A program made the translations under genes and the position numbers. Below are positions 1,432 to 52,923 of a DNA stretch of 54,092 bases, piece by piece. How positions within the stretch are numbered: the first letter of the stretch is position 1; each line of letters starts with the position of its first letter. Source of the stretch: an uncultured Anaerolineaceae bacterium (GTDB taxonomy: Bacteria > Chloroflexota > Anaerolineae > Anaerolineales > E44-bin32); contig CAYGXU010000009.1 of the NCBI GenBank assembly GCA_964353875.1, positions 1 to 54,092 of the forward strand, in the 5' to 3' direction. The notes beneath the pieces were generated by a model. It made no database searches. It had not been told where the DNA came from and saw only the letters and a program-made list of their open reading frames with translations.

Positions 1432-3405
1432 TCACCGTTTTACAAAATCCCTCTTCGGAGCAAGCAACCACACAGAGACCTTATCAGCTCTCAGCACCGG
1501 CTGATAATACTCCAGGATGGGTACACTGACATGTTTGACCCAGGCATCGTTCTCCTCACCAAAAGGCTCTTCAGATCCCTGAAATACAATATAGAGGGGA
1601 TCACTGACGATCAATTGAAAACGGTGACGGGAAAGATCTCTATACAATTGAGCAAAATACGTTTGATTATTTCCCATCGCCTGGTTCATCATATCCTTGA
1701 GCTCATAATCCATTACCAGAGGAACCTCGGTGATCTCGCCAAAAGTAAGAAGCTGACGCTGGTCAATAAATAGCACTTCCCCTTTCTCTGCTGCTTCCAT
1801 GGTTAGATAACGGATGGATGCAAGCGCCTCGCGGACATCTTTATTGTCAGGCAAATCCAGGTGTTCTCCAACTCGGACGAGATTCCAAATTGGAACAAAG
1901 ATCACAGCCAGAAGCAAAACCCAGGCAAAGCTTGGCATCGATCGTAACACACTCTCCTTGGTGATTAAATAGCCCGTAAAAAGGACGAGAGTCACCAAGA
2001 ACATATCAAGATTGTGGAGATTACTCCCCCCACCGATTTTTACACTGGCGACAAGACCAGCTCCAAGGAATCCGAGAAAGGCGACCAGGGTTACAAGCCC
2101 CTGTAACCAATCTAACTTCACTCTACGGCTGAGAATCACCCATGCAAGCCATAATAGGAGAGGTCCAACACTATAGATCAACCCTGGGATCACGCCAGTC
2201 GGATTGGTAGCACTTGGCCAAAGTCGATACCAAAGGAGGGGCTGACTCAGGGAGGTGGAATAAATAGGTCCAGTGCTTGGGAAAGCGAGATCCATATAGA
2301 TTTGCGAAATAATCGCGCCGATAATCCCTGAAAAGCCCAATATGAAAGGACGTCGCAGCCTTCGCCAGAATGTCTGCGCCGGCTCTTCATCCAAAATTGC
2401 CCACACTATAGCCCAAATAGCAGGGGACAGCATCCATGTCCAACGACTGATTCCGGCATAAAAAGAAGCGACAGCTATGATCAAAGCTGGTTGCCAAAGC
2501 CAATTACGCCGATATCCCAGCACAAAGATGATTGCACTTATAATAAGGGGAGCGTAAATCGGTCCTTGAGAGAGAAATAGAAATGCCCAGAGAGCGAAAG
2601 GCCATGGTCCCAAATGGAGATGATCAGAACGTCGCGCCCCGATAACCACCCAACCCAAGACCATATGAGGCAAGATCCAAAGCAAAGCGTCCCATAAACG
2701 CATGTGCTCGATCGAGAGCCGACTAAAAAACAAGAAAGGCAAGCCCCACAATCCATGACGCCCCGGCGTTAGGTAGGAAGGATAGGAGAACTCTCCAACA
2801 ATATCGTATCGATCATGACTAAAGTAGAGGGAGTAATCCCAAAGCCGATTGCCTTCCGACCAACCAAGTGCGAAAGGATAATCCGTCACCTGAAATAAAC
2901 GCTGCACCACCAATACAATGCAACTGGAGAGGAGCAACGCTGTCATCCCTCTCACGACCCAATGTCCCAATTTCCTGGGAAAGAAAAGACCTGCAATTAG
3001 TGAAAAAATAACCACCAGCAGGATACGAAAATTCGGGAAATCGAATCGCCAGCCCCATGGTCCAAAAAGGAGGAAAGAAGGAAATGCCAAGCTTATCAGG
3101 GCGATAGGCCATCGGAGGGATCGTATCCGATCGAGCTGTGTCTCTATCTGAGGAATCCATTTTGATTCAACTTCCCCTGGTTTAAAAACCCCGTAGACAA
3201 CAACAAACATCACTCCCCATGCCAGGAGGCCATAACCGATCAGCCCCACGCCCCATTTGACTGAGAAATGCCCGAGGAACTCCCCATTGCCTGTACCCAT
3301 GCCGCGCAAGAAGAGATCGCGTGAGCCTGAGACAACCAAGATCCCTAATAGAAGCCATCCGATCCGTAGCCAAAATGTCGCGCTTCGAAAGATCGATTTC
3401 ATCAT
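1432..3405 (-). CDS. Large polytopic membrane protein with a C-terminal soluble domain, candidate GT-C-type glycosyltransferase
   Basis: 657 aa with more than 12 hydrophobic segments, then a ~150-aa hydrophilic C-terminal domain. It has a 4-nt start/stop overlap with the upstream flippase-like gene and sits in a glycan locus beside a polyprenyl-phosphate GT2. Confidence 0.55.
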   Translation of the reverse strand: MMKSIFRSATFWLRIGWLLLGILVVSGSRDLFLRGMGTGNGEFLGHFSVKWGVGLIGYGLLAWGVMFVVVYGVFKPGEVESKWIPQIETQLDRIRSLRWPIALISLAFPSFLLFGPWGWRFDFPNFRILLVVIFSLIAGLFFPRKLGHWVVRGMTALLLSSCIVLVVQRLFQVTDYPFALGWSEGNRLWDYSLYFSHDRYDIVGEFSYPSYLTPGRHGLWGLPFLFFSRLSIEHMRLWDALLWILPHMVLGWVVIGARRSDHLHLGPWPFALWAFLFLSQGPIYAPLIISAIIFVLGYRRNWLWQPALIIAVASFYAGISRWTWMLSPAIWAIVWAILDEEPAQTFWRRLRRPFILGFSGIIGAIISQIYMDLAFPSTGPIYSTSLSQPLLWYRLWPSATNPTGVIPGLIYSVGPLLLWLAWVILSRRVKLDWLQGLVTLVAFLGFLGAGLVASVKIGGGSNLHNLDMFLVTLVLFTGYLITKESVLRSMPSFAWVLLLAVIFVPIWNLVRVGEHLDLPDNKDVREALASIRYLTMEAAEKGEVLFIDQRQLLTFGEITEVPLVMDYELKDMMNQAMGNNQTYFAQLYRDLSRHRFQLIVSDPLYIVFQGSEEPFGEENDAWVKHVSVPILEYYQPVLRADKVSVWLLAPKRDFVKR

Positions 3406-4334: not shown

Positions 4335-4341
4335 TGTTTTG

Positions 4342-8731: not shown

Positions 8732-8772
8732 ATTCAGTTGCTGAATTATACCCGGATCATGTCAACGGTCAA
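8732..8772 (-). promoter_or_regulatory. Sigma70-type promoter (TTGACC-N16-TATAAT) with palindromic operator ATTCAG-CAA-CTGAAT upstream of gmd
   Basis: The -10 lies at 8750..8745 and the -35 at 8772..8767, with a second TTGACA at 8765..8760. The perfect palindrome is at 8746..8732. Relative to the copy at 54..68, both arms carry a complementary substitution, so the palindrome is preserved. Confidence 0.55.
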
Positions 8773-10355
8773 GCCTTACGGCGTCTTGCGCTAAACCGAT
8801 CGAAAGTCAAGATACATGTCAAATAGAGGAGGATTATACTTATACTTACCCCAAGGGTCTTCCAAAAACTTAACCGTGGAGTTTGATAATATCTTCCCAT
8901 TTCCCAATGAAGAAAGGTTATGGTTGGGATTACTACTACGACTCCAATCCGCAGTAGCCAGGGATCATGTTCCTCCCGAGCGGTAATCCAGGCCCAACCA
9001 GCCATTGCTGCCTGAAGGCAAAGGAATATCGCCCTCCAGCGAGGATTATCCCACAGGCGACCTGCATCCCGATAGGAAACCAGCAACGCTGCAACCCAAA
9101 GTAATATTCCCAGATACGTTTCCAGGCTGCGCCATCCCTTATAGCGGATCGCTGCCAGGGGAGCGTAGATCAAAAAAGGTAGAAGGAAGAACCAGCCTAA
9201 TGCCCGAAAGGCAACGATTGCACGGATGAGGGGCGCACTCGTGTTATCCATCACCGCTGCAGGAAAGAAAGGTTGTACCAGGCCATAGAGTGTCGCCAAG
9301 GGCAATCGCCCCCAATCCGGTACCATTCCAAAGATGGTTTGAACCCAGCCTGAGGATTGTTCAAGAAGATGAAGTTGATAACCAGCCCCACTTTGTATCC
9401 ACCAACGCACCAAATCAATCAAATTGCCATCAGGTGCCCCCTCGATCATTGCCCAAGCGCGGATTGTCAAGGCGAAGACCACGAAACAGAATAGAAGCAA
9501 AGCGCCCAACGTAATCACGATATGTTTGGCATCGCCCCGCTTCTCCCAAAGCCATGCGAAGATAAGAATGCCCAGGATGATCAGGGCATAAGGGGGCGAG
9601 ATAAGAAGCGCGAGTATGAGGCCACACAACCAATAAAGTAAGCCTTGCTTTAGTCTCGTTGAACGAGAATGGGTGTATCCTTCAAGCCCAAGCGCCAATG
9701 CTGTCATGAGAAAGGGTTCCCGCATTTGAGAAGAACCTAGGAGCACTGCCTCCGGGTAGAAGGCGACTAGCCAGGCTGCAAACATCGCTGCCCGATTCCC
9801 AAACAGCTTATGGGTGAATGACCAGGTAAACAATACACACAGGGAGCCAAGTGTTGACGCCACAAGGATGATGAGGATGGGACGATGAACATCAGAGGAC
9901 ACCGTCCGGTAGAGGAATGCACTCAAAAAAAGCAGTCCTCCATATTGGTCACTAGAATAATCACCTTCCCAAGCACTGATGAGGGACTTATCGGATTCTG
10001 CCAGTCGCCATGCATCGGTGTCACGATGATAGGCATCTTTAAAGATGTAACCAGCCTGATGGGGAGCAGAATCGCTATAGCCATATTGGGGAAGGCCATA
10101 CGTCAAGATCACCCCAAGACCCAATCTCAGTGCAAGCGCCAAGAGGGCAGCAAGGAGCAGCCATCGAGGTCGATCCAACCCAGCCAAGGTACGCCATGAA
10201 AACCAGAAGAGTAGCGCGCAAATAAGGCTGACAACGAGGTATGCCAGAAAATTCGCTAGTGTCCTACCACCCGAATCCAGCAAGGTTATCAGCACACTCA
10301 CAACGAGAGGAAAAACGAACCATAGAGACCCATCTCGTACAGCCTTCAATTTCAT
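8769..10355 (-). CDS. Polytopic membrane protein, candidate glycan polymerase or GT-C-type transferase
   Basis: About 528 aa from ATG 10355 (GAGAGAAGG upstream), with 12 or more hydrophobic segments and large loops, inside the glycan locus. No family motif recognised with certainty. Confidence 0.55.
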   Translation of the reverse strand: MKLKAVRDGSLWFVFPLVVSVLITLLDSGGRTLANFLAYLVVSLICALLFWFSWRTLAGLDRPRWLLLAALLALALRLGLGVILTYGLPQYGYSDSAPHQAGYIFKDAYHRDTDAWRLAESDKSLISAWEGDYSSDQYGGLLFLSAFLYRTVSSDVHRPILIILVASTLGSLCVLFTWSFTHKLFGNRAAMFAAWLVAFYPEAVLLGSSQMREPFLMTALALGLEGYTHSRSTRLKQGLLYWLCGLILALLISPPYALIILGILIFAWLWEKRGDAKHIVITLGALLLFCFVVFALTIRAWAMIEGAPDGNLIDLVRWWIQSGAGYQLHLLEQSSGWVQTIFGMVPDWGRLPLATLYGLVQPFFPAAVMDNTSAPLIRAIVAFRALGWFFLLPFLIYAPLAAIRYKGWRSLETYLGILLWVAALLVSYRDAGRLWDNPRWRAIFLCLQAAMAGWAWITAREEHDPWLLRIGVVVVIPTITFLHWEMGRYYQTPRLSFWKTLGVSISIILLYLTCILTFDRFSARRRKA

Positions 10356-10650
10356 CCTTCTCTCACATCCTTTATTCAATCAACCCTGCCTGATCTGAAG
10401 ACCTGATTGCCTATCCCAGCACACGAAACTATGAAGAAAATTTGGTAGTCTCTATACAACCGGAAGCCTTCAAAAGCGACTGACTTGGAAGGCCAGGATT
10501 ATCTTGCATAGAAGTCGATAGCTTTTTGCTTCCAAAATCATACGACAAGTAGAAGAGCTTCCTTCGGTTATAGAATCTCCGCATTATCCGGCAATTCGTC
10601 GTAAATTCTTCTAGAACATATGCTTCCATGCATCATCTTGCTCAAGGCAA

Positions 10651-22600: not shown

Positions 22601-22610
22601 TCCGCCCTCA

Positions 22611-22636
22611 TAAAAAACGGAGGTAAATCACCTCCG
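22611..22636 (-). terminator. Second leader hairpin with a U6 tract, immediately upstream of the Shine-Dalgarno sequence and ATG (attenuator or terminator)
   Basis: Minus strand: CGGAGGU-gauuu-ACCUCCG followed by UUUUUU, then AUGAGGGCGGA-AUG. Confidence 0.5.
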
Positions 22637-22667
22637 GGGCAAACGCGGTAAGCTGTATCCCAAACTG

Positions 22668-22698
22668 GAATAAAAATCCCGAAGACAGAAGTCTTCGG
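22668..22698 (-). terminator. Intrinsic terminator inside the 5' leader (expression platform)
   Basis: Minus strand: CCCGAAGAC-uucu-GUCUUCGGG followed by AUUUUUAUU. Its 5' arm overlaps the 3' strand of a long-range helix. Confidence 0.6.
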
Positions 22699-22859
22699 GG
22701 CAAGCCGTACGCGTGAACGACAAGATGTCGTTTGGACTAACCTTCTTCCATCCGGACTATACCGTCGGCTCCGGAATTAAACCGGATCATGCATTTTCAT
22801 GCTCGCGGGCTTTACCGCCGGTCGGGAGTTGGACTGATAATCCTCACCCTGCCCCGAAG
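22692..22859 (-). promoter_or_regulatory. Structured 5' leader element (riboswitch-like aptamer candidate, class not recognised)
   Basis: A perfect 10-bp long-range helix pairs CUUCGGGGCA (22858..22849) with UGCCCCGAAG (22701..22692). It encloses several local hairpins: GCAU-GAAA-AUGC, UCCGG-uuuaauu-CCGGA, AACGACA-ucu-UGUCGUU, and ACCGGCGG/CCGACGGU. Confidence 0.5.
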
Positions 22860-22892
22860 GTCGAATTATTCAATTGTTCACATATTGCACGA

Positions 22893-22920
22893 AATTCTAC
22901 CACACCTTTGTTTTCTTGTA
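22893..22920 (-). promoter_or_regulatory. Promoter of the ABC-transporter leader (TTACAA-N16-TGg-TAGAAT)
   Basis: The -35 lies at 22920..22915 and the extended -10 TGGTAGAAT at 22901..22893. This predicts a 5' UTR of about 285 nt. Confidence 0.5.
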
Positions 22921-23235
22921 ACCATCTCTGTTTTATTTCTGACACCAACTCGAGCTATTCTTTGTAGAGTCAATTCTTCAATATTGCATTTATCCGCTAA
23001 TACGAAGGGGTGAGGAAATTCTCTACAGCAGCAAACACCATAATAAGCCTAAGATTTCTCCAGCACATCACACCTGAATGAAATAATCCGTAATATTGAA
23101 GAACAGAGCATAATTTGCCTATACCAGTTCAGGATATTCAGGCACAAATTTGTTCCTAAAGGTTATATTCTCCAGTACCACACCACGATTTTGGCTGATC
23201 CACTTCTAGAAAAAATCATCCAAACCAAAGCTGCC

Positions 23236-23928
23236 TTAATTTACACTCCCAAATCCCGGTTCTTTTATGTTCAGTTCTTTGACCGCTCCTGTTGACACGA
23301 ATACCACCCGCTCAGCGATGTTCGTTACGCGATCACCGATCCTCTCGAGATTATGCGCACACCATAACAAATACGTGGCTCGTTGAACGCTTTCAGGTTT
23401 ATGTGCCATGATATCGACCAATTCATCAAAAATAGTCTGATAGAGATGGTCCATTGTGTCATCGCGTGCAGCGATTTCCTTGGCGCGCGTCACGTCAATA
23501 TCATGCAGAGCTTCGATGATTTCGCGCAGCATGCCCCGAGCGAGTTCCACCATCTTCGGAATATCAATCAGTGGTTTGAGCAAGGGCTCATCCCCCATCC
23601 GCAGCACCGTCTTTGAAATGCCAGCTGCATGATCGCCAATTCGCTCCATATCCACAACCACATTCATAATCGCCACAACTCTGCGCAAATCGCTTGCAGT
23701 CGGCTGCTGTGTGGCGATCAATGCCAAACAGGCCTCCTCAATCCGAAATCGTAATTTGTTGACAAGTTCATCGTTATTGATCACCTGCTGGGCAAGATCA
23801 CGATCCCGATGGGCCAGGGATTGCAGAGACTCGCTCAAGGCGTGGTCGATTAATTCACGCATGCGTAGAAGATCTTCTTCGATCTCTAGCAGACCTTGGT
23901 CGAATGCCGCTCGTAAACCTGAACTCAT
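23236..23928 (-). CDS. phoU: Phosphate signaling complex protein PhoU
   Basis: Two PhoU repeats (E..IN..E, ERIGDHA / ERIGDRVTNIAE). I chose ATG 23928, which is preceded by AGGAGGAGAGGAGC. Confidence 0.9.
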   Translation of the reverse strand: MSSGLRAAFDQGLLEIEEDLLRMRELIDHALSESLQSLAHRDRDLAQQVINNDELVNKLRFRIEEACLALIATQQPTASDLRRVVAIMNVVVDMERIGDHAAGISKTVLRMGDEPLLKPLIDIPKMVELARGMLREIIEALHDIDVTRAKEIAARDDTMDHLYQTIFDELVDIMAHKPESVQRATYLLWCAHNLERIGDRVTNIAERVVFVSTGAVKELNIKEPGFGSVN

Positions 23929-23952
23929 GCTCCTCTCCTCCTTGATCAACAA

Positions 23953-24723
23953 TTATCCCATGCGACCGGTAATATATTCCTCTGTCCTTTGTTGTGAAGG
24001 TCGCGTGAAAATTGTGTCGGTCGAATCGAACTCAACCAGCTCGCCCAGCCAAAACAGACCGGTTCGGTTGGAAACACGTGCCGCTTGCTGCATGTTATGG
24101 GTGACAATGACAATCGTATAAGCTTGTTTCAACTCCCTCATCAGCTCTTCGATGCGTAATGTTGCGATTGGATCCAATGCTGAACATGGTTCATCCATAA
24201 GGATGATCTCCGGTTGCACAGCAAGTACACGTGCCAAACACAATCGTTGCTGTTCGCCCAAAGAGAGTTCAAGCGCATTTTTATGCAAAGAATCTTTTAC
24301 CTCCTCCCATAATGCAACCGATCGAAGTGATTCCTCAACCAGGAACTCGATTTCACCTCGACGAACTAAATTTAATACCCGAGGACCGAAGGCGACATTA
24401 TCGAAAATCGATTTAGGGAACGGATTAGGTCTCTGAAAGACCATACCTACTTTCTGGCGAAGATTGGCTAAATCCAGATCATCTCTATAAATATTCTCGC
24501 CGTCGATACATACCTCGCCTTCGATACGGATATCAGGGATCGTATCATTCATGCGGTTTAAACAACGCAAGAAAGTCGATTTTCCACACCCGGAAGGCCC
24601 AATTAAAGCTGTAATCTCTCGAGCACGAATATCAATACAGATCTCCTTCAAAGCCCGGAAGGAACCATAATAAAAATCCAAGTGATGGACTTCAATTTTC
24701 ATCGCTTCTTTATTCGAACTCAT
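23953..24723 (-). CDS. pstB: Phosphate ABC transporter ATP-binding protein PstB
   Basis: [68 protein letters not shown]. Confidence 0.95.
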
Positions 24724-24730
24724 ATTTTTG

Positions 24731-24785
24731 ATTGTACACCATTATGCCGTTTTGTCTTGAAACGCTTTGACGAGTCCAATATAAT
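24731..24785. promoter_or_regulatory. Back-to-back divergent pst promoters (candidate)
   Basis: Minus strand: TACAAT (24736..24731) sits exactly 7 nt upstream of the pstB ATG. Plus strand: TTGAAA (24757..24762)-N17-TATAAT (24780..24785) sits exactly 7 nt upstream of ATG 24793. Confidence 0.35.
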
Positions 24786-25686
24786 GACTATCATGTGGTT
24801 TCCTCATCTCCCATCCCGGATCAGTTTTAGTATTCTATTAGGTGGACTATTCCTTTTCTCGTGTCGCCCCGCCCATCAATCGAGCCTAAATAATGTCCCC
24901 AGTACTGCCATAGAAAATAAGGGCTCCGATACGATGGTGAATCTGGCGCTCGCTTGGGCGGAAGCTTACCAAAAAATCCACCCGCAGATTCGTATCTCGG
25001 TTACTGGTGGAGGGAGTGGTACAGGGATCGCTTCCCTTATCAACGGCACCGTGGATATCGCCAACGCCTCCCGACAAATTAAACCCGAAGAAGAACAAGA
25101 GGCGCAAGCCAATGGCATCATCCCAGTTGAGTTTGTTGTCGCTCGGGATGCCATCGCCATTATCGTCCATCCTGATAATTCTATCGATCGATTAACGATC
25201 GATCAGATTTCTGCCATTTACGCTGGTGAAGTGAATAATTGGCGTGAGGTTGGGGGTGATGATCGACCCATCGTCCGTCTTTCACGAGAAACGAACTCCG
25301 GCACACATGTTTATTTTTTAGATAATGTTTTACGAAAAGGAGAGAAGGATAATAAGACATTATTTACACCTTATACTTTACTCCTCCCTTCATCAGAGGG
25401 GATCGGTGCAGAAATTCGTCAAAATCCAAATGCGATTGGATATGATGGTTTAGGGTATGTCACCGAAGGGATGAAACTCGTCGCTGTGGCGCAGAATGCT
25501 TCGGGTCCATTTGTCCTCCCTTCAGCAAAAACGGTGAATGATCAAAGTTATCCAATTGCCAGAGACCTATATCTCTATACCGCTGGTAAAGCCGAAGGTG
25601 AGATTCTAAACTACATTACCTGGATCTTCACTCCTGAGGCGCAGGAGATCGTGACGGAACTGGGTTTTGTACCGATTACTCCATGA
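24784..25686 (+). CDS. pstS: Phosphate ABC transporter substrate-binding lipoprotein PstS
   Basis: GSDTMVNLA, TGGGSGTGIASLINGTVDIANASR and a lipobox (LFLFSC). The start is uncertain (24784 or 24793). The ORF-track start at 24682 overlaps pstB. Confidence 0.9.
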   Translation: MTIMWFPHLPSRISFSILLGGLFLFSCRPAHQSSLNNVPSTAIENKGSDTMVNLALAWAEAYQKIHPQIRISVTGGGSGTGIASLINGTVDIANASRQIKPEEEQEAQANGIIPVEFVVARDAIAIIVHPDNSIDRLTIDQISAIYAGEVNNWREVGGDDRPIVRLSRETNSGTHVYFLDNVLRKGEKDNKTLFTPYTLLLPSSEGIGAEIRQNPNAIGYDGLGYVTEGMKLVAVAQNASGPFVLPSAKTVNDQSYPIARDLYLYTAGKAEGEILNYITWIFTPEAQEIVTELGFVPITP

Positions 25687-25693
25687 GGTGAAT

Positions 25694-26587
25694 ATGCGCG
25701 AGACAAGTTGGACTGAATTTATCGTCACACGATTGATCAAAGCCTCTGGCTATTCAGCCATCCTGATTGTCTCCATGATCTTCATCTTTCTCCTGGGAGA
25801 GGGCTATCCCTCCCTGTTTGAAATTCCCCTCTCAACGATCTTCAGTCAGCGCTGGTACCCCATTGAGGGTTACTTTGGCATCCTGCCCTTGATCGGTAGT
25901 TCTATCCTTGTCACACTCGGGGCTGCGTTAATTGCAGTACCGTTGGGTGTATCAACAGCCATTTATATCCGCGAAATCGCCCCTCATTGGACGCGAGAGA
26001 TCCTCAAACCCTTGGTTGAGGTCTTAGCAGGCCTTCCCTCGGTGCTGCTCGGCTTTCTCGGTATCTTGGTCCTTACCCCCTTTATCCGTCAACTTCTCCA
26101 TCTCCCTACCGGGCTTACAGCATTTGCAGGAGCCATCTTGCTTGGTGCAATTTCCATCCCCACCATTGTCAGCGTGGCGGAGGATGCGCTCGATGCCGTC
26201 CCCAAGACTTATCGCGACGCAGCTCTCGCCCTGGGCGCTACGGAATGGCAGACCATCTGGAGGGTGACTCTCCCAGCTGCACGTTCAGGAGTCCTCACCG
26301 CCATCATGTTAGGAATCGGTCGGGCAATCGGAGAGACCATGACGGTCATGATGGTCACAGGAAATGCCCCCATCTTGCCCACAGGCTTGATGGCATTGTT
26401 TCAACCTACACGAACAATGACTGCAACAATCGCTGCTGAAATGGGAGAGGTGGCCAATGGTAGTGTCCATTATCACTCTTTATTTTTGATCGGAATTGTG
26501 CTTTTTATGATTTCTTTGTTTGTTAATTTGGTTGCTGCAAGTATGGTCTTCCGTCAAAGGAAACGGTCGGAACGCATTCTATCGTAA
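25694..26587 (+). CDS. pstC: Phosphate ABC transporter permease PstC
   Basis: EAA loop (EDALDAVPKTYRDAALALGATEWQTIWRVTLPAARSG) and 6 TM segments. There is a GAGGTG Shine-Dalgarno sequence before ATG 25694. Confidence 0.9.
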   Translation: MRETSWTEFIVTRLIKASGYSAILIVSMIFIFLLGEGYPSLFEIPLSTIFSQRWYPIEGYFGILPLIGSSILVTLGAALIAVPLGVSTAIYIREIAPHWTREILKPLVEVLAGLPSVLLGFLGILVLTPFIRQLLHLPTGLTAFAGAILLGAISIPTIVSVAEDALDAVPKTYRDAALALGATEWQTIWRVTLPAARSGVLTAIMLGIGRAIGETMTVMMVTGNAPILPTGLMALFQPTRTMTATIAAEMGEVANGSVHYHSLFLIGIVLFMISLFVNLVAASMVFRQRKRSERILS

Positions 26588-26711
26588 TGTCATGCTTGAG
26601 AGATTTTTCTCCTGCCTCGAGTATCGTACGATCCAATGAGATAGCAGGAGGCAGGTAAATATGGCGTCTCGTACAAAAAACAGGCAGAATCGGACTTAAG
26701 GCTTCAAGTGA

Positions 26712-27611
26712 GTGAGCATAATGGATGACATAATCATGAATCAAGAGAGACGCCATATTCAGAGCAACTTACGCAAGATTTCGCAACGCCTTGGCTTCGC
26801 CGTCATGACGCTTGCTGCATTGTTCACCGTCGTCCCAATCGTCCTTGTTGTAGGCTTCGTTGCCTGGAAAGGTGCCCCGGCCATATCCTGGGAATTTTTA
26901 TCACAAATGCCACGCGATGGCATGCGTGCTGGCGGAATCCTTCCCGCCATCATCGGTACATTCTGGCTTACGGTTGGGACCGCCATCATTTCTGTACCTC
27001 TCGGCATAGGGGCAGCCATCTATCTTGCCGAATATGCTCCAGAAAGTCGTTGGACGCGCACCATCCGTATTGCGATCATCAATCTCGCCGGGATCCCCTC
27101 GGTAGTCTTCGGCCTTTTTGGACTGGGGCTGTTTGTCCTTTTCCTTCGCTTTGGGACAAGTATCCTGGCCGGTTCGTTGACCCTTGCAATCATGACCTTG
27201 CCGGTGATCATCAGCACAGCGGAGGAAGCCCTGCGCGCGGTCCCCAATAATTTTCGGGTTGTGAGCATCTCCCTGGGAGGGACGAAATGGCAGACGATTC
27301 GGCGCATCGTACTTCCGCAGGCTTTACCCGGGATCCTCACTGGGATCATCCTTGGCCTGGAACGGGCTGCAGGTGAGACAGCGCCAATCCTCTTCACCGT
27401 TGCAGCTTTTTTCCTACCCCGTCTACCTACCTCCATCTTGGATGCCAGCATGGCCTTGCCTTATCATCTTTTCGTCATCTCCACCCAGGTTCCAGGAATG
27501 CCCATTCAAATTCAATATGGCACTGCCATCGTCTTACTGACCTTCGTGCTCGGGATGAACATTATTGCCACAGTCATCCGTTCGAGAGCAAGGGTAAAAA
27601 GACAATGGTAA
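26712..27611 (+). CDS. pstA: Phosphate ABC transporter permease PstA
   Basis: EEALRAVPNNFRVVSISLGGTKWQTIRRIVLPQALPGILTG with a PstA-type TM layout. Confidence 0.9.
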   Translation: MSIMDDIIMNQERRHIQSNLRKISQRLGFAVMTLAALFTVVPIVLVVGFVAWKGAPAISWEFLSQMPRDGMRAGGILPAIIGTFWLTVGTAIISVPLGIGAAIYLAEYAPESRWTRTIRIAIINLAGIPSVVFGLFGLGLFVLFLRFGTSILAGSLTLAIMTLPVIISTAEEALRAVPNNFRVVSISLGGTKWQTIRRIVLPQALPGILTGIILGLERAAGETAPILFTVAAFFLPRLPTSILDASMALPYHLFVISTQVPGMPIQIQYGTAIVLLTFVLGMNIIATVIRSRARVKRQW

Positions 27612-28447
27612 ATAACTCGACAATAATACATGAAATATCTTCTCGGAAGAATGATGAAATTCCATCGATTTCTCAGGAAGGGAACAATTCAAAGCCCAAA
27701 ATCATCATCGAATCTCTAAGCATAGCTTATTCGGACGGGACCGAATCGCTTAAAAACATCAACCTTAATATTCCTGAAAATGCAATTTCCGTCCTTTTCG
27801 GTCCTGCTGGCGGGGGAAAGTCTACGCTCCTGCGCACATTGAACCGACTCAATGATCTCGCTGATGTCCAACAACTGTCCGGACATGTCTGGATCGATGG
27901 GACTGACATCCTTGATCCAAATATCGATACCAACGCCCTAAGGAGAAAAGTGGGGATTGTTTTCGCCCAGCCCGTTGTCTTGCCCATGGCTATACGAGCG
28001 AACTTGATTTATGGGCTCGAATTGGCCGGAAATAAGAACCGCTCTAAGTTTGCGGAAGCTGTCGAGCGAAGCTTAAAGGCGGCTGCGTTGTGGGAAGAGG
28101 TCCATGACCGCCTGGATGATCCTGCAGTATCCCTCTCCGGAGGACAGCAACAACGACTCTGCCTGGCGCGTGTCCTGGCGCTGGAACCAGAAGTGATCTT
28201 GCTCGACGAACCCACTTCCGGACTCGATCCCATTTCGACGGGAAAGGTTGAAGCGACACTTAGAGAACTCTCGAAGAGTTACACGATTGTTCTCGTCCCA
28301 CACTCCATCCAGCAAGGGGCGCGCGTGTCCGACTACGCGGCTTTCTTCCTTAATGGTGAATTGATTGAATTCGCCCCTGGAAAGCAAATCTTCATGAATC
28401 CACGGGATAAACGTACAGAAGATTATGTTGAGGGTCGTTTTGGTTAA
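27605..28447 (+). CDS. pstB: Second PstB-type phosphate ABC ATP-binding protein (paralog with a ~30-aa N-terminal extension)
   Basis: [62 protein letters not shown]. Confidence 0.9.
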   Translation: MVNNSTIIHEISSRKNDEIPSISQEGNNSKPKIIIESLSIAYSDGTESLKNINLNIPENAISVLFGPAGGGKSTLLRTLNRLNDLADVQQLSGHVWIDGTDILDPNIDTNALRRKVGIVFAQPVVLPMAIRANLIYGLELAGNKNRSKFAEAVERSLKAAALWEEVHDRLDDPAVSLSGGQQQRLCLARVLALEPEVILLDEPTSGLDPISTGKVEATLRELSKSYTIVLVPHSIQQGARVSDYAAFFLNGELIEFAPGKQIFMNPRDKRTEDYVEGRFG

Positions 28448-34694: not shown

Positions 34695-35732
34695 TTAATT
34701 CCCCCCCTGACAGCCCGTGTTTACGAATTCACCTGTGAAATCAGAAAACTTCGCTGCATTATCCCGTACTATGACTTTGATCTTGATTTGCGAATCGGGC
34801 TGCACGCCAGGAATTGTCGTTGCCCCTCGATATGTGCCATTCCAGGTACCATAAGGGGTGTAGCTTTGACTAACGGCATCCAGACCCTTGCCACAGATAT
34901 CCGATTCTGAGGGCAGGATACTACACCAGAGACTGACATATCCACCACCATCCCCCAGTCCGGATGAAGGCCCAATTCCGTAAGAGACTGCCTGATCCTT
35001 TACATTGGCAATCTGGACATCAATATGGCAATTTTCGCCATCTCGGTTGAGGACGACGACAAGCTGAAGCAATTCTGGCTTCTGGCTATCCGCTGGTGTC
35101 GGCGTTGGAGTAATGGTCGGCGTGTTTGTAATTGTTGGCGTAGGCGTTATTGAAGGCGTCGGCGTATTCGACGGTGTGGGTGTGTTCGACGCTGTGGGTG
35201 TATTCGACGGTGTGGGCGTGTCCGATGGTGTGGGGGTAATCGACGGCGGTAATGTCGGAGGTGGGCGGCGGGTGCGAGTGGGTGTTGGCGGGATGGGCGT
35301 TCGGCTGGGTGTGGGCGTCTTTGATGGCGTTGAAGTATTGGTTGCCGTCCTGGTGAGCGAAGGCGACGGGGTCACCGTGGCGGTCAGGGTCGCCGTCGCA
35401 CTGGGCGTGATGGTCGGCGTATCCGTCGGAACCAATACCGTCACGGTTGGAGAGGGCTCTTTCTCCTCAGCTAATTCGTCCCCATCAACTTTGATTGATT
35501 GGTCGCGCAGGAGCTCTTCAATAATCGATAGCCTCAGAGCGCCTAACGAACCCAGCAGGTCCTCCGCGCCGTAATCTGCGCCCAGACGGGATTGCAGGCT
35601 GACCGATAAAGGTAATAAACGCGGCCAATTCAGGACCATGCTTGTGATGGCAGCAATTAATAGAATCGTCAACAAAAAGATCAGCAGAGCTTCTAACGGA
35701 AACTGATCCCTGCGGGAGGTTTCATCTTCCAT
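34695..35732 (-). CDS. Membrane-anchored surface protein with a Thr/Pro-rich linker and a Cys-containing C-terminal domain (paralog A)
   Basis: N-terminal TM (LEALLIFLLTILLIAAI), the juxtamembrane motif ADYGAEDLLGSLGALRLSIIEELL, about 130 aa of TP/SP repeats, and a ~120-aa C-terminal domain shared with 35879..37105. Confidence 0.7.
   Translation of the reverse strand: MEDETSRRDQFPLEALLIFLLTILLIAAITSMVLNWPRLLPLSVSLQSRLGADYGAEDLLGSLGALRLSIIEELLRDQSIKVDGDELAEEKEPSPTVTVLVPTDTPTITPSATATLTATVTPSPSLTRTATNTSTPSKTPTPSRTPIPPTPTRTRRPPPTLPPSITPTPSDTPTPSNTPTASNTPTPSNTPTPSITPTPTITNTPTITPTPTPADSQKPELLQLVVVLNRDGENCHIDVQIANVKDQAVSYGIGPSSGLGDGGGYVSLWCSILPSESDICGKGLDAVSQSYTPYGTWNGTYRGATTIPGVQPDSQIKIKVIVRDNAAKFSDFTGEFVNTGCQGGN
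35155..35244. repeat. Five tandem 18-bp repeats encoding S-(N/D/I)-T-P-T-(P/A) hexapeptides
   Basis: Units start at 35155, 35173, 35191, 35209 and 35227 (GGTGTGGGTGTRTTCGAC-like). They lie inside the linker of 34695..35732. Confidence 0.85.
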
Positions 35733-35878: not shown

Positions 35879-37105
35879 TTATTGGGGCTTTCCACATTCG
35901 GCCGGCATAGTGTACTCTCCAAGAAAATGGCATGTTTCGTGACCAGCCTGATCACGGGCTTTTGAGTAGAGCGCAATATGGAATCGATCCGGAGCTGGGG
36001 ACGCCCAAGATGGATCGATTTCAATCTGAATTGAACCATCGTAACAGCCATCCCATCCACCCTCTTGTGTCGGACCGCCACTACAGAGGGTCAGAGGATT
36101 GGAGAAAATCCAGTCTGTTACGCCGCCATTAACTGGTTCAACCTTATATTTCAGTTTAACCCATTCGATCCCACTTGATGGCGCAGGATCTACCACTCGT
36201 AAGTCCGTGACTGTTACTGTGATTGTACAGACATTCAAATTCCCAGGCGCAGGATCAAGGATGCCCCCGGATATTTGTGGTGGCTGTGTATCGTTCGGCT
36301 TGGGAGTCTCAACTGGCTGGCTTTGAATGATGCATCGCAAAGACTTGCTAGAAGCGGTGGCCTCCTTTCCGTTCAGATGCCAGAATAGCGAGTCGCCATT
36401 AAAAATATTACTGAAACTAGCACTGGGGTATTCCGGAGAGCGTCCGGGGAGGAAGCTTGTAGGCTGACCTCGATCCTTCGGTTCTGGGGAAAAGTAATTA
36501 GCAGAACCAATGGGGATCTCCACCGTCTGATCGTTGGGATTCTGATATCCCCAATAAGCGGTATAAGAATGATCCTCATTTTCTGTGATGCACTCCAGAA
36601 GCGGGATGACTTCTGAAATCCCGGGAGTTGCAGTCGGGACAGAGTTAGTCTTCGTTGCTGTCGGAGTCACAATGGGCGTCATCGTCATTGTGGCTATGGG
36701 TTTGGTCGTCGCGAGAGGTAATGGAGTTGCAGCCGTTTCAGTTGTCGTTGGAGGGATGATCACTGTCTCGGTGGGGAATGTTGGCTGAGAAACGATAGCC
36801 GCCTGCCCAGTGGCCGTTGGAACCAGCCCCCATAAATCTTGTTCTAATTTAGTCCTGGTTTCGGATGATAATTCTGCATCTCCAAAGATCTCATCCAGGA
36901 TGGCCAGTTGCAGGGTTTTCAGCGTGCCGCCAAAGATATCCGGACCATAATCCGCAAGCAGGTTAGATCGTAAGTGGAGATAGAATGAAGATCTAATCTC
37001 AGGGGAAAATCCCATCCAGAGGATAAGTAGGATCCATAGGAATAATACAGGCAAAAAAACCCCTAAAGCTTCGATCAACCAGGAGCTTTCTGATCGCCTG
37101 TCCAA
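35879..37105 (-). CDS. Membrane-anchored surface protein with a Thr/Pro-rich linker and two extracellular domains (paralog B)
   Basis: N-terminal TM (WLIEALGVFLPVLFLWILLILW), the motif ADYGPDIFGGTLKTLQLAILDEIF paralogous to protein A, a T/P-rich linker, a middle domain (YTAYWGYQNPN...GQPTSFLPG) and a C-terminal Cys-containing domain. It overlaps the upstream gene by 31 nt. Confidence 0.7.
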   Translation of the reverse strand: MDRRSESSWLIEALGVFLPVLFLWILLILWMGFSPEIRSSFYLHLRSNLLADYGPDIFGGTLKTLQLAILDEIFGDAELSSETRTKLEQDLWGLVPTATGQAAIVSQPTFPTETVIIPPTTTETAATPLPLATTKPIATMTMTPIVTPTATKTNSVPTATPGISEVIPLLECITENEDHSYTAYWGYQNPNDQTVEIPIGSANYFSPEPKDRGQPTSFLPGRSPEYPSASFSNIFNGDSLFWHLNGKEATASSKSLRCIIQSQPVETPKPNDTQPPQISGGILDPAPGNLNVCTITVTVTDLRVVDPAPSSGIEWVKLKYKVEPVNGGVTDWIFSNPLTLCSGGPTQEGGWDGCYDGSIQIEIDPSWASPAPDRFHIALYSKARDQAGHETCHFLGEYTMPAECGKPQ

Positions 37106-38982
37106 TTCTGATCCAACCCTCCCGCGCCACTCGTGTAACGCACCCTACGAGCTTGAACTTCGTAGACATTAACAGTCTGCCCAGAATGACGCAAACGCGC
37201 CCGACCATAACGTCCGAATTTAAATTGCTGACGAGCATCCGACAGGCATTCATATGTTGACTGAGAGATCAGGATAGCTCCGCCTCCCAATTCTCGACAT
37301 ATCTCCTGTACGCTGCGCGCTTCTAGTACAATATCGCCAATTACGATTGATTTCAACTGGGACAAATTTCCTACTCCCCCAGCCACGATCTCTCCAGTCG
37401 CAAGCCCCAGCCACAATTCCATGGCAGGCAATCCCTTGCTGGAACGATTTTTATTCCAGCGTTCGATCAAGCCCACAATTTCTAAACTAGCTTGAATTCC
37501 CCGAATCGCTCCATCTTGAGCAGTGAGTTGCTGTGGCAGAATTCCAAAGGCTGCCATCATAGTCCCCCCATCAAAAGTACTGATTTGACCGCCATATCGG
37601 GATAGGACTGGCTCCATGGCACGATACAATTCATCCATAGTTCGAATAAGCGCTTCAGGATCGTCACTACCCATCACAGCGAGAAAATTGATCATGTCGG
37701 CAACCAGAATGGTCGCATCAGAGCAGATCCCTCGCCTCGCTCCCGGCATTGTCTCTGCTTGGTCTAATTGAGAAAAGCGATTCATAGGTGGGGCCTGGAA
37801 AGCACTGGCATAAGAGCCGCTCTCCCGTAAACCCGTGACCAGGGTGTTAAACGAATCAGCTAATAAACCGATCTCATCGTTGCTACGCGTCTTTACCTGG
37901 GTATCGAGATCCCCTGCCGCAACTTGGGCAGAAGCCGCGGCGATTTCAATGAGTGGGCGTGTGATCGTATGAGAGATCAGCAGCCCAATAGTCACTACAA
38001 GTACCAATGCTGCTGCACCATAACGAGCCACCAGAAGCACATTTTCAAAAAATGCGCCCTGCAATTGGATATCCTGCTTGGCAATCCCCAAGAAGCCCAA
38101 ATCGACAGTTTTATTCCTTGCCTCGAATTGGGTTAACACCTCTCGAAAAGAATCCCCGGCTACACTCACATTTCTTACTATACTTTGCTCGGCGCTTTTT
38201 GTAACGATTTCGGAAATGAGCGAGCTCTCGAGCGTGAGTCGATCTTTGGGTTCAAGTTGAAATGATGATCCCCGGAGAGCGCCAGTTGTGAGATCATAGA
38301 CGCTGATGTTCACCCCGATCTCATCTTGAAGCTGTAAAAGCATATTCTCCAAGTAATTCCCTACTAGAACAGCCCCAATAATGGCTCCCTGGTTGTCCCT
38401 TAAAGGCGCGCCTAAAACAAAGACACTGATTTCATTTTGATCCATTTGTAACGCTTCCAGGCCAACCCACTTATCTCCCTGAGCGTCGTCTTCCCCAGAT
38501 AGGATCTGATTGATAAAGGTCCAATCTCTGTATAGGGTCTCACCGCGAAGAATCTCATAATCGCCAGCTGAGCCTTGAGGATGATGGCGTATCGTCAGTA
38601 AGCTGATGGCTTCTCCATCCAACACAACGGCTACGTCCACGCCAGCATTAATAACCAGGGGCAGCACCCTGGCGCGCAAATCCTCCGCGCTCTGCATTGC
38701 AACTCCCTGAGGGACACCCTCGGTATTCGCAATCAAACGTTCCAACTCGAGCATATCCCGCTCAACGCGGACAATGGCATCTGTGACCCGCTTCCCTCGA
38801 TCTGCAAGGTCCTCTAAAAAGTGAAACTCATCCATCTGACTCATCACTTGGTTTACAAGAAAAGCTGCCCCTAGCCCAAGCAACAGTGCCAGAAAGATGA
38901 ACGGCAGTGTAATTTTCCAACGTAAACTAAATCGAACGCGTGCCCGAGAACCTTTTCTCACACTCATCGTCAGCCTTAACAT
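37075..38982 (-). CDS. Membrane sensor protein: extracytoplasmic Cache-like domain, HAMP domain, and a class III nucleotidyl cyclase-like (apparently degenerate) domain
   Basis: Two TM segments flank a ~290-aa loop. HAMP segment: RPLIEIAAASAQVAAGDLDTQVKTRSNDEIGLLADSFNTLV. Cyclase-like segments: ILVADMINF..., GGTMMAAFG, LGLATGEIVAGGVG, IGDIVLEARS. Confidence 0.75.
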   Translation of the reverse strand: MLRLTMSVRKGSRARVRFSLRWKITLPFIFLALLLGLGAAFLVNQVMSQMDEFHFLEDLADRGKRVTDAIVRVERDMLELERLIANTEGVPQGVAMQSAEDLRARVLPLVINAGVDVAVVLDGEAISLLTIRHHPQGSAGDYEILRGETLYRDWTFINQILSGEDDAQGDKWVGLEALQMDQNEISVFVLGAPLRDNQGAIIGAVLVGNYLENMLLQLQDEIGVNISVYDLTTGALRGSSFQLEPKDRLTLESSLISEIVTKSAEQSIVRNVSVAGDSFREVLTQFEARNKTVDLGFLGIAKQDIQLQGAFFENVLLVARYGAAALVLVVTIGLLISHTITRPLIEIAAASAQVAAGDLDTQVKTRSNDEIGLLADSFNTLVTGLRESGSYASAFQAPPMNRFSQLDQAETMPGARRGICSDATILVADMINFLAVMGSDDPEALIRTMDELYRAMEPVLSRYGGQISTFDGGTMMAAFGILPQQLTAQDGAIRGIQASLEIVGLIERWNKNRSSKGLPAMELWLGLATGEIVAGGVGNLSQLKSIVIGDIVLEARSVQEICRELGGGAILISQSTYECLSDARQQFKFGRYGRARLRHSGQTVNVYEVQARRVRYTSGAGGLDQNWTGDQKAPG

Positions 38983-39250: not shown

Positions 39251-40165
39251 CTACTGTACTTGTAGTTCGCCGAAGACCACAATTCGTTGCGTATCGACGA
39301 GGTAGGGGTAACAAGAGATGAGAGTGATAGTCGGCGTTTCAGTTGCCTCCATCACACTCACCTCCGTTGAAACCACAATACGTAAACCAGTGACTAAGTA
39401 GACATACTCGCGCGTGGCAGTCATGATACGGATCTCATCCCCTGGTTTAAGCTGATCGAGATTGCGGAAGAGTTCCCCAAAAATGTCATTATGAGCGGAT
39501 AAAATCAAATTACCTGACTGTCCTGGGTCTGCGCTGCTAATATGCTGACCAACCCCTTTCTTTAATTGCTCCCATCCATCCCCTTGCACAATCGGCTGGG
39601 GATTCGCCCACAAAGATTCAATGAGAATCTGCCGAGCTTGCTCAGGGCCGGGCGTGGGAATGGGGAACTGAGGCAAAGATTGTACCAAGGGACGTAAATT
39701 TGCGGGGATCTCAGCGTCATTTGGCCTTGCTCCCCCAGGGGAAGTCGGTGGCATGTGCCCCGAAGGCAGCACAACCGCCGTGATCAAGGGAGTGGTTGTG
39801 GATGTGGGCAATGTCATCGCCTCTTCCGCCTCTCGGTTGAGCACTTGCAATAGGCCAAATCCTTTTAAGAATAGGAAAGCCATTCCGAAAACTGCCAAAA
39901 TTTCAACCCATAATAGCATTCGATTGAAGACAGCACGAAACATATTCGTAAAGTTGATTCGAGGTTTCTCATCGCCATCGTTCTCCCCCTTCCCCTGCTC
40001 AAATTGACTTTCTTCATCGACTTCGGTGACTGGGAGTGCCCTGCCAGTCTTACGAAAACGTTGCAATCGCGTGGCATGCGCCTCACGCTTCTTGCGCGCC
40101 AGGACTGCCTCCAATTCCTCAATGGAATAGTCCCCGATCGAATGTCTTTCCCTGCCCATGCTCAC
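39251..40165 (-). CDS. Sortase family transpeptidase (class E-like) with an N-terminal cytoplasmic extension and a TM anchor
   Basis: GNLILSAHND (catalytic His), TLISCYPY (TLxTC Cys motif) and QRIVVFG (Arg). Confidence 0.85.
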   Translation of the reverse strand: MSMGRERHSIGDYSIEELEAVLARKKREAHATRLQRFRKTGRALPVTEVDEESQFEQGKGENDGDEKPRINFTNMFRAVFNRMLLWVEILAVFGMAFLFLKGFGLLQVLNREAEEAMTLPTSTTTPLITAVVLPSGHMPPTSPGGARPNDAEIPANLRPLVQSLPQFPIPTPGPEQARQILIESLWANPQPIVQGDGWEQLKKGVGQHISSADPGQSGNLILSAHNDIFGELFRNLDQLKPGDEIRIMTATREYVYLVTGLRIVVSTEVSVMEATETPTITLISCYPYLVDTQRIVVFGELQVQ

Positions 40166-42925: not shown

Positions 42926-43570
42926 TTACCTCTGTGAATTAAAAGCACTCTGGAGGGCAAGGGTCCAAATATGGGTGGCTTCAAGAACCATTTCCGCCTC
43001 CGCTGCTCGAAGATGCTGGCTGACGGCGCTGGGTGTGATCCCTAGTTCAGCCGCGATCGATTTGCCGGACATGCCACCCATGGTGAGGTCCACAACCTGT
43101 TGTTGACGTTCGGTCCATCCATAGCGTAACCCCGCGTACAGCAAAGAATAAATCCCGAAACAGGCCTCTTCCGCTTCAGCCACTACTTCGATCTGCGTCG
43201 CTCGGCGCTCCGCCTGTTCAATTGCTGCTCTTGCCCGATGAAAACAGGGACCATCCATCCCCAAGGCGATGGGCTCTAAGGTCGTATCAAGCCGTCCAAC
43301 CCCCAAACCCATTCTCAGCTCCACGGGATGGACGATCGAGCGGAACAAGGCCATGAGTCGGTCGATCTCCTTCACCGAATGTAATAAGCCCTGGAACTCA
43401 TCGCCGATCGTGAGCACGAAATGGGAAGCGATCCCGGCTGAAAAACGCTCATTGACAAGATCGATTGCCTTCCGCAGCTGCCTTTGAAGCTCCTTCCGAT
43501 CCTGCACCCCTCTCGAACCAACCACATCCCCAATCACAGCCAGGAAAATTGATCGTCCCATTTCAAACAA
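42926..43570 (-). CDS. SatD family protein (cyclase-like fold with a C-terminal HTH)
   Basis: AVIGDVVGSR..., LTIGDEFQGLL, RMGLGVGRLDT...GMDGPCFHRARAAIE, and a C-terminal LuxR/sigma-R4-like helix-turn-helix (SGKSIAAELGITPSAVSQHL). Confidence 0.7.
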   Translation of the reverse strand: MFEMGRSIFLAVIGDVVGSRGVQDRKELQRQLRKAIDLVNERFSAGIASHFVLTIGDEFQGLLHSVKEIDRLMALFRSIVHPVELRMGLGVGRLDTTLEPIALGMDGPCFHRARAAIEQAERRATQIEVVAEAEEACFGIYSLLYAGLRYGWTERQQQVVDLTMGGMSGKSIAAELGITPSAVSQHLRAAEAEMVLEATHIWTLALQSAFNSQR

Positions 43571-43653: not shown

Positions 43654-43707
43654 TATTAAGCTATTATGCTTAATATGTTCTATATTTAGCGATAATGCTT
43701 AATAATG
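43654..43707. promoter_or_regulatory. Candidate operator array upstream of the SatD-family gene
   Basis: Palindrome TATTAAGC-N6-GCTTAATA (43654..43675) plus a direct repeat of ATGCTTAATA (43666..43675 and 43695..43704), 29 nt apart, in an AT-rich spacer. Confidence 0.4.
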
Positions 43708-43967
43708 ACCTATTTTAGCATATAGACTGAATATTGATCAAGGGCAAGTTGGGCATGATATCAGAGGATCCAAACAGCGGGATCGTCCTCTTCTGGATCG
43801 AAATTTCTTCATTGAAAAAACGGCTATCTGAGGGAAATATCCACAAGAAAGCCAGGGAAGTCAGCAATGAAAAAAACCATTGAATAACCAAGATCATACT
43901 TAACGAAAAACAGCCTTATCTGCAGATCCCTTAGATCAACAGGAATTCGATCTGGTTTGCCTCTGCT

Positions 43968-52830: not shown

Positions 52831-52923
52831 GCGCGATGTTGACCACCCTAAATAATATGAAAACGAAAACCGACCGACGCGCCCAACCGAACAGAAAACC
52901 AATCCTTAAATAATGAGGTCAAC

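Follow-up and report, generated by a model that had tools for sequence, protein, structure and literature searches.

A canonical FMN riboswitch with two candidate ligand-gated terminators ahead of a predicted riboflavin importer operon in uncultured Anaerolineae

The minus-strand leader of an ABC importer operon in an uncultured Anaerolineaceae bacterium is an FMN riboswitch in every feature tested. The window referred to throughout is the whole stretch of DNA that was analysed, 54,092 nucleotides in length. The leader is of an already known kind and does not represent a new class; judged from its sequence it is an FMN riboswitch controlling ribXYZ, with FMN as its predicted ligand, and very probably it acts in the canonical manner, repressing the ribXYZ riboflavin ABC importer operon by premature transcription termination. 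More tentatively, and with somewhat less than even confidence, we propose that the ribXYZ leaders of Anaerolineae have in common a conserved platform in which one aptamer gates two terminators, T1 and T2, with the aptamer 5' strand serving T1 kinetically and then T2 near equilibrium. The start site, the termination sites and the binding of FMN at this locus are all features that we infer.

The aptamer and the strand that closes it are located as follows.

22736 to 22865, minus strand: FMN riboswitch aptamer (RFN element, RF00050), full length, from the covariance model
22739 to 22745, minus strand: 3' strand of the closing helix P1, GAAGGUU, the anti-antiterminator, from the Rfam structure, folding and the ortholog alignment

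RF00050, the FMN riboswitch, is the sole Rfam match in the whole 54 kb window (cmscan, Rfam 15, gathering thresholds), with a score of 100.8 bits (gathering threshold 66.2) and an E-value of 2.8e-22, and it spans model positions 1-138 of 138 without truncation. The initial annotation of this DNA had recognized a riboswitch, a reading upheld by the RF00050 match, by covariation of the fold in 25 orthologs and by conservation of the leaders. It had also proposed an unclassified or new class, and here the Rfam scan, which it had itself named beforehand as the refuting test, returned RF00050 at the score given above. At the gathering threshold the 54 kb window contains no match to the TPP (RF00059), cobalamin (RF00174) or guanidine-I (RF00442) families, and no tRNAs were found in the window; the stretches that had been likened to TPP and cobalamin elements (UGAUCCGGUUUAAUUCCGG, GCGGUAAAG and AGUCCGGA) turn out to be conserved segments of the FMN aptamer.

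The upper-case consensus positions of RF00050 are all matched bar one loop base. Junctions J1/2 (GGGGC), J2/3 (ACCGGCGG), J3/4 (GCGA), J4/5 (UGAU), J5/6 (CCGACGG) and J6/1 (GGAUGG.AGAAG) conform to the consensus, and the sole deviation is found in the P5 loop at 22780, where a highly conserved G is replaced by U, a change that is unique among 25 aligned orthologs. The aptamer junction positions presumably correspond to 3F2Q residue numbers in the way that we have assigned them. The real closing helix P1 is formed by GACCUUC (22862-22856) and GAAGGUU (22745-22739), and its pairs covary among orthologs, from CG to UA and from GC to AU. When 25 orthologous aptamers are analysed with RNAalifold the six-helix fold is recovered, that is P1 plus five inner hairpins or helices, with compensatory changes at 15 of 33 aptamer base pairs, P1 pairs included; P3 and P5 also show compensatory changes between the window and the ortholog L001. 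Four local stems had been listed in the leader previously. Three of these are present, GCAU-GAAA-AUGC with its GAAA loop, UCCGG/CCGGA and AACGACA/UGUCGUU, and the fourth, ACCGGCGG/CCGACGGU, falls outside the real fold, with just 2 bp of it used in the Rfam structure.

Because RF00050 also takes in variants, a high score would by itself be compatible with an FMN-like aptamer of altered specificity, for riboflavin, lumichrome or another flavin, that resembles the rare subtypes 1 and 2 and controls a non-riboflavin transporter (PMC6298564), and the one unusual base in the P5 loop, at 22780, would be in keeping with such a variant. In the variant FMN subtypes, however, junction guanosines at the phosphate and ribityl contacts are changed to adenosines, with loss of FMN binding, and these subtypes are tied to efflux pumps or COG3601, the tested members of subtype 2 being ON switches (PMC6298564). 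In the present leader the junction guanosines are retained and all conserved junction positions are those of the FMN consensus, the platform is of the OFF type and what lies downstream is an importer gene of the RibXY type known from the literature. We consider a variant specificity to be highly improbable and retain the assignment to the FMN riboswitch proper.

Three co-directional genes follow the leader, encoding a permease, a binding protein and an ATPase.

21776 to 22600, minus strand: ribX, ABC permease (BPD_transp_1), 274 aa (PF00528, E 7.6e-34)
20782 to 21765, minus strand: ribY, NMT1/ThiY-like substrate-binding lipoprotein, 327 aa (PF09084, E 3.6e-49)
20021 to 20785, minus strand: ribZ, ABC ATPase, 254 aa (PF00005, E 8.5e-35)

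The three Pfam domains agree with the NMT1/THI5-type ABC importer that had been suggested downstream of the leader, and a COG0600-type permease adjoins a COG0715/NMT1-type binding protein. The likely Shine-Dalgarno sequence of ribX is GAGGG at 22609-22605. For ribY the mechanical ORF begins at TTG 21822, but the start is most likely ATG 21765, in view of homologs of 327 aa and of the lipobox in the RibY N-terminus MKTSTLIPFILLCFVITSC.

RibXY has been described as a ThiXYZ-like riboflavin transporter that is preceded by FMN riboswitches in all Chloroflexi analysed and, in that 2013 description, has no ATPase (Sun et al. 2013, PMC3766115). An E. coli strain auxotrophic for riboflavin is rescued by ribXY of C. 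aurantiacus (Gutierrez-Preciado et al. 2015, PMC4418817), and flavin binding by RibY is cited in the same paper from its reference 48. There the criterion for RibXY orthologs is an upstream FMN riboswitch, in Chloroflexi, Actinobacteria or Thermobaculum, with a cut-off to C. aurantiacus RibY (Caur_0816-0817) of >38 % identity and at least 80 % coverage; an associated ATPase gene, ribZ, is reported in few Chloroflexi only, and NMT1-family transporters are noted to carry other substrates under other riboswitches (PMC4418817). The small molecule had initially been considered unknown, and FMN-controlled RibXY(Z) riboflavin importers of Chloroflexi are already in the literature (PMC3766115, PMC4418817). 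The operon fits the description of RibXYZ, and from its aptamer and gene types we predict that it encodes a riboflavin importer.

A genome scan with the binding protein as query provided 65 related loci, all but two of which come, by their labels, from Anaerolineae/Chloroflexota metagenome bins or from unclassified uncultured bacteria. Binding-protein identities range from 48 to 68 % across the loci, with the exception of L065, a distant partial match at 37 %. An FMN aptamer was detected in 57 of the 65, in 35 by Rfam and in 22 by a profile built from those aptamers, and in the 35 loci with full aptamers detected by Rfam these are positioned ~1 kb upstream of the binding-protein gene. Six of the eight aptamer-less loci are cut by contig ends, a seventh is the distant partial match L065 and the last, L005, is the only locus truly without both permease and aptamer; no other riboswitch was found in these eight loci. 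In nearly all evaluable loci (55/56) the binding-protein gene is directly followed by an ATPase gene.

It is possible in principle that a genuine FMN riboswitch controls an NMT1-type ABC system that imports some other compound, flavin-related or unrelated, although we regard this as improbable. The NMT1/COG0715 family is versatile, including thiamine-precursor, methionine and guanidine-linked homologs, RibY reaches the cutoff of no NCBIfam equivalog, and its nearest solved structures are 4nmy and ThiY 3ix1, the PDB holding ThiY/THI5-type relatives only. The best 120 protein matches to RibY are all closer Anaerolineae relatives than C. aurantiacus. What argues for riboflavin all the same is that an FMN aptamer stands ahead of essentially all evaluable orthologs, and that RibXY was identified by the same criterion and subsequently borne out by complementation and by the flavin binding that PMC4418817 reports from another source.

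To describe the riboflavin importer leader beyond its aptamer, the minus strand of 22400 to 23100 was examined by promoter and terminator scans, an ORF listing and exact string searches, and the elements obtained, together with those from folding, are the following.

22894 to 22922, minus strand: putative sigma-70-type promoter GTTACA-17-TAGAAT with a TG extended -10, from a consensus scan
22850 to 22862, minus strand: switching strand, that is the P1 5' strand plus J1/2 (GACCUUCGGGGCA), from folding and duplex energies
22716 to 22732, minus strand: spacer hairpin AACGACA-ucu-UGUCGUU in the interval between aptamer and T1, -6.5 kcal/mol
22669 to 22702, minus strand: terminator T1, UG+CCCGAAGAC-uucu-GUCUUCGGG and then AUUUUUAUU, from the terminator scan and folding
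22612 to 22641, minus strand: terminator T2, CGGAGGUG-auu-UACCUCCG and then U6, from the terminator scan and folding

The promoter is situated ~287 nt ahead of the permease ATG at 22600, and the ORF listing contains no minus-strand ORF of at least 60 aa between the two, so that the earlier placement of a promoter ~285 nt upstream with no intervening ORF is confirmed. The designation GTTACA-17-TAGAAT is equivalent to TTACAA-16-TAGAAT. Transcription would start near 22887. The -10 box is conserved in L066 (JGI sample 3300060621), a relative with 90 % identity in which synteny, the aptamer, T1 and T2 are all retained. The spacer hairpin is kept in L001 via compensatory changes (AGCGA...UCGCU) and may serve as a timing or insulating element.

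Central to the expression platform is the switching strand, which has as alternative partners the P1 3' strand, the T1 5' arm and the T2 5' flank. A perfect 10-bp long-range helix had been taken in the initial annotation to close the aptamer. The complementarity is real, CUUCGGGGCA at 22859-22850 with UGCCCCGAAG at 22702-22693, although the coordinates had been 1 nt off, but the aptamer is closed by GACCUUC/GAAGGUU and the 10-bp helix is instead a long-range antiterminator. String search and folding bear out that one sequence serves both as the 3' strand of this helix and as the 5' arm of T1, and that the two structures compete: the T1 5' arm (22702-22693) doubles as the 3' strand of the antiterminator AT1, and the platform consists of a terminator that is mutually exclusive with an antiterminator using an aptamer strand. 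The T1 hairpin, CCCGAAGAC-uucu-GUCUUCGGG at 22699..22678, comprises 9 bp, 6 of them GC, and is followed by its U-tract, and the T2 hairpin at 22636..22618 comprises 8 bp, 5 of them GC. The second hairpin with its U6 and a preceding segment able to pair with the same 5' strand had likewise been noticed correctly, the segment being UGCCCCGGAG at 22641-22632, ahead of the T2 hairpin. The somewhat longer UGCCCCGGAGGU (22641-22630), which precedes and overlaps T2, is complementary to the aptamer 5' strand (AT2a), and the complementarity between the T2 5' flank and that strand extends over 11-14 bp. The motif TGCCCCGRAG occurs four times in the window, three of these within the leader, against 0.25 occurrences expected, and a count of 4 was reached by 0 of 100 shuffles; the repetition is therefore not due to chance. 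What results is a dual-terminator platform, with T1 and T2, a U-tract after each, behind one aptamer and ahead of the first gene.

Duplex energies of -9.7, -24.7 and -26.2 kcal/mol were calculated for P1, AT1 and AT2a, respectively, and hairpin energies of -15.8 and -11.1 kcal/mol for T1 and T2. As the transcript is allowed to grow, the minimum free energy (MFE) structure proceeds in the order P1, AT1, T1(+P1) and T1+AT2a. P1 enters the MFE structure upon completion of the aptamer and is displaced by AT1 on emergence of the T1 5' arm (transcript ends 22697-22685). Once the T1 3' arm is out, T1+P1 is slightly better than AT1 at equilibrium (-67.7 vs -66.6 kcal/mol), so that read-through at T1 depends on kinetics. 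After the T2 flank has emerged the ligand-free MFE structure pairs the aptamer 5' strand with UGCCCCGGAGGU and T2 never forms; with the aptamer constrained as bound, T1 and T2 both fold. All of these folding results are thermodynamic predictions, from which the kinetic steps are inferred. Two other roles for the T2 region were considered and rejected. A relay, in which the T1 3' arm, once released, binds the 5' arm of T2, involves a duplex of just -12.9 kcal/mol, and the constrained relay state reaches -84.1 kcal/mol; when the aptamer 5' strand captures the T2 flank directly the value is -99.6 kcal/mol, so that AT2a is preferred. Nor does T2 appear to be a Shine-Dalgarno sequestor, since the GAGGG of ribX is downstream of the T2 U-tract and outside the hairpin, and its sole predicted pairing is in a GU-rich helix in the ON state.

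According to the folding model the switch is OFF with ligand and the long-range helix is an antiterminator that forms without FMN. A transcriptional ON switch had been proposed at first, and its sign is inverted here, FMN being predicted to stabilise the separate P1 and to free the terminator arm. Such an OFF response to ligand is sensible logic for an importer. When FMN is scarce P1 would not be locked, the aptamer 5' strand would capture the T1 5' arm once it is transcribed (AT1) and polymerase would pass T1. In the two-terminator reading T1 would then refold behind the polymerase and the same strand would capture the T2 5' flank (AT2a), by far the most stable ligand-free state, and with AT2a formed T2 would also be read through and ribXYZ expressed. 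With FMN bound, CUUCGGGGCA would be held by P1 and the junction core, leaving the T1 arm free and allowing both terminators to form, and transcripts would stop near 22669, or near 22612 if they get past T1. Being nearly isoenergetic with its antiterminator T1 would be a kinetic checkpoint, and T2, whose antitermination is strong at equilibrium as long as the aptamer is not locked by ligand, would provide a second, more thermodynamic checkpoint that lowers leakiness.

Whether the second terminator belongs to the regulated platform can be judged from the orthologous leaders. In these the 5' arms of the terminators form 8-13 bp with the aptamer 5' strand, compared with 3-7 Watson-Crick pairs in the 3'-arm control. 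The antiterminator is kept by a compensatory change in the L023 group (CUUUGGGGCA:UGCCCCAA) and by a second, independent one in L054/L057 (UUCAGGGC:GCCCUGAA). Sites complementary to the aptamer 5' strand were counted regardless of a U-tract, using a length-matched stretch of the permease gene as control; the reverse complement of the leader is unusable for this purpose because its hairpins are self-complementary and yield many matches. At least two such sites, at about +35-40 and +95-105, are present in 42 of 55 leaders, as opposed to 1 of 55 coding controls, from which we conclude that the two-module platform is conserved in the clade and is not a peculiarity of the window. A stricter picture emerges with the terminator rule applied to orthologous leaders, which includes the U-tract: 45 of the 55 evaluable leaders have one or more qualifying hairpins, and 17 of the 55 have at least two. 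In some lineages the second site may not terminate.

These counts bear on an alternative arrangement in which T1 is the single ligand-controlled terminator. T2 would then terminate leakily without regulation, stabilise the mRNA as a 5' structure or have some part in translation, and its complementarity would be of no regulatory significance. We hold this to be unlikely. In its favour, just 17/55 leaders have two strict terminator hairpins, T2 is weak at -11.1 kcal/mol, and in Bc1, the only studied dual-terminator riboswitch, the second terminator is insensitive to ligand. A T2 outside ligand control would nevertheless have to be reconciled with a flank whose 11-14 bp of complementarity yields the most stable ligand-free fold, with a second site at a fixed distance of ~+95-105 in most leaders and in almost none of the controls, and with the conservation of T2 and its flank among the window, L066 and L001 while loop and spacer diverge. 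The two-site layout, found in 42/55 leaders, suggests rather that one aptamer gates two sequential terminators.

With the candidate new riboswitch class removed, the operon is called, on sequence grounds, an FMN-repressed riboflavin importer, ribXYZ, of uncultured Anaerolineae, a call that is useful for predictions of vitamin auxotrophy and cross-feeding in metagenomes. The conserved second terminator offers a natural, easily testable system for one aptamer gating two sequential termination decisions, and the two-terminator layout bears on whether leakiness is lowered or the dose response sharpened in this way without duplication of the aptamer. If the two-terminator reading is true, each transcript would have its one FMN aptamer read out two times, a compact alternative to duplication of the whole riboswitch.

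The operon and its leader can be compared with several known systems. With the RibXY(Z) systems of Chloroflexi it shares a COG0600-type permease and an NMT1/COG0715 binding protein homologous to ThiXYZ, an upstream FMN riboswitch and the phylum Chloroflexota, a likeness that is one of gene types. It differs in that an ATPase gene is part of this operon, and an ATPase is the rule in these Anaerolineae loci. The leader has in common with the FMN riboswitches of B. subtilis ribD and ypaA(ribU) and of F. nucleatum impX the six-helix aptamer with its conserved junctions, a predicted OFF switch via intrinsic termination and a gene for riboflavin supply. A long-range antiterminator with the P1 3' strand as anti-antiterminator is described for the FMN riboswitches of B. 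subtilis and L. lactis (PMC8966005), and the scheme in which the antiterminator is made from the aptamer 5' strand and the terminator 5' arm is the same here. What distinguishes the present leader from known FMN riboswitches is its uncultured Anaerolineae host, the one deviant base in the P5 loop and the succession of two terminators, both with a complement of the aptamer 5' strand in front of them.

For a dual terminator behind a single aptamer we found one described precedent in the literature, the Bc1 c-di-GMP-I riboswitch of the Bacillus cereus group, where two terminators in one expression platform are said to be "rarely seen" and where the second is folded whatever the ligand and masks the first (PMC11218506). 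Bc1 and the present leader each combine one aptamer with two rho-independent terminators a few tens of nt apart. Bc1 belongs to another riboswitch class, however, and here both terminators are complementary to the switching strand, so that, unlike in Bc1, both are predicted to be ligand-gated. Tandem riboswitches include 31 doublet and 4 triplet FMN riboswitches, and the table of the review in which they are compiled does not provide for two platforms behind one aptamer (PMC9481103). The tandem FMN riboswitches share with the ribXYZ leader two sequential termination decisions governed by the same ligand and an expectation of tighter repression or a sharper response, but they duplicate the aptamer together with its platform, whereas in the present leader the aptamer is single and the duplication is confined to the terminator module.

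The P5 loop of the FMN aptamer upstream of ribXYZ reads GGUUUAAU, with a G to U substitution at position 22780 of the minus strand. At this point the Rfam consensus carries a G after GGU/GUU (GGUGnAAn), as do all 24 further orthologs in the alignment, and the loop of the 90%-identity relative L066 is GGUGGAAU, so that the substitution is unique to the window among the aligned orthologs, at a loop base that is otherwise highly conserved. A tertiary contact may be weakened as a result; alternatively, the U may stem from sequencing or assembly. Three open reading frames have been called over the riboswitch, the first two mechanically and antisense to it, the third as a 'gene' on the public L066 contig:

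22713..22967, plus strand, 84 aa
22789..23013, plus strand, 74 aa
L066 3..101, minus strand, 33 aa

All three are probably spurious, most likely because the leader is structured and GC-rich.

Within the operon, the longest reading frame for the binding protein starts at a TTG (21822, minus strand) and shares 47 nt with the permease gene, while an ATG at 21765 lies 10 nt past the permease stop. Comparison with homologs, together with the lipoprotein signal MKTSTLIPFILLCFVITSC, points to the ATG as the true start. On the other side of the leader are phosphate-uptake genes (23236..28447), unusually split between the strands:

24723..23236, minus strand, pstB-like ATPase and phoU, directly upstream of the riboswitch promoter
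24682..28447, plus strand, PBP_like_2 binding protein, two permeases and a second ATPase, divergent from the former pair

The divergent reading frames overlap at 24682-24723 and therefore at least one start codon has been over-extended.

Features elsewhere in the window are as follows:

1432..3405, minus strand, large ORF, 657 aa
3402..15493, polysaccharide-biosynthesis cluster (glycosyltransferases, GDP-mannose dehydratase, flippase-like protein, UDP-glucose dehydrogenase)
8769..10379, minus strand, large ORF, 536 aa
32032..34374, plus strand, VIT + VWA domain protein, 780 aa
35164..35246, short tandem repeat with a period of 18/36 nt (4.6/2.3 copies), within minus-strand ORF 34695..35732
37075..38982, dCache/HAMP adenylate-cyclase-type sensor
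39251..40165, minus strand, sortase-domain protein
43654..43719, intergenic short tandem repeat, 29-nt AT-rich unit, 2.3 copies
47131..48537, minus strand, large ORF, 468 aa
51892..53832, plus strand, PfkB-family kinase, then Indigoidine_A-like protein

At E<=1e-5 the three large ORFs have no Pfam match; two of them, at 1432..3405 and 8769..10379, are embedded in the polysaccharide-biosynthesis cluster. No Pfam match was found for ORF 34695..35732 either. The AT-rich repeat sits just upstream of a SatD-family gene (42926..43570). Only a few kb, including the sensor gene, separate the VIT + VWA and sortase-domain genes; the copy of TGCCCCGAAG inside the latter (39756-39765) is an unrelated chance occurrence. 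A PfkB-family kinase gene next to an Indigoidine_A-like one, as at 51892..53832, is the pair typical of pseudouridine catabolism (psuK/psuG).

Among the related loci, the binding-protein homolog of L005 (the Anaerolineaceae bin52 chromosome CP070708.1, about 4001-5035, 55% identity) is the sole evaluable one with neither an adjacent permease nor an upstream FMN aptamer, and may be an orphan or differently regulated copy. L037, a 4.1-kb contig (JAIWHF010000201.1) assigned to a Methanosarcinales archaeon MAG, bears an Anaerolineales-type ribXYZ operon (57% identity) and a bacterial FMN riboswitch. Its leader is almost the same as those of L039 and L042, a similarity that suggests binning contamination. 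In two more distant loci, L054 (1949-2128) and L057 (2943-3120), the platform has neither spacer hairpin nor second site: one terminator starts only 9-10 nt past the aptamer, and its GCCCUGA arm matches CUUCAGGGC in the aptamer. This arrangement is a compact version of the platform in the window leader.
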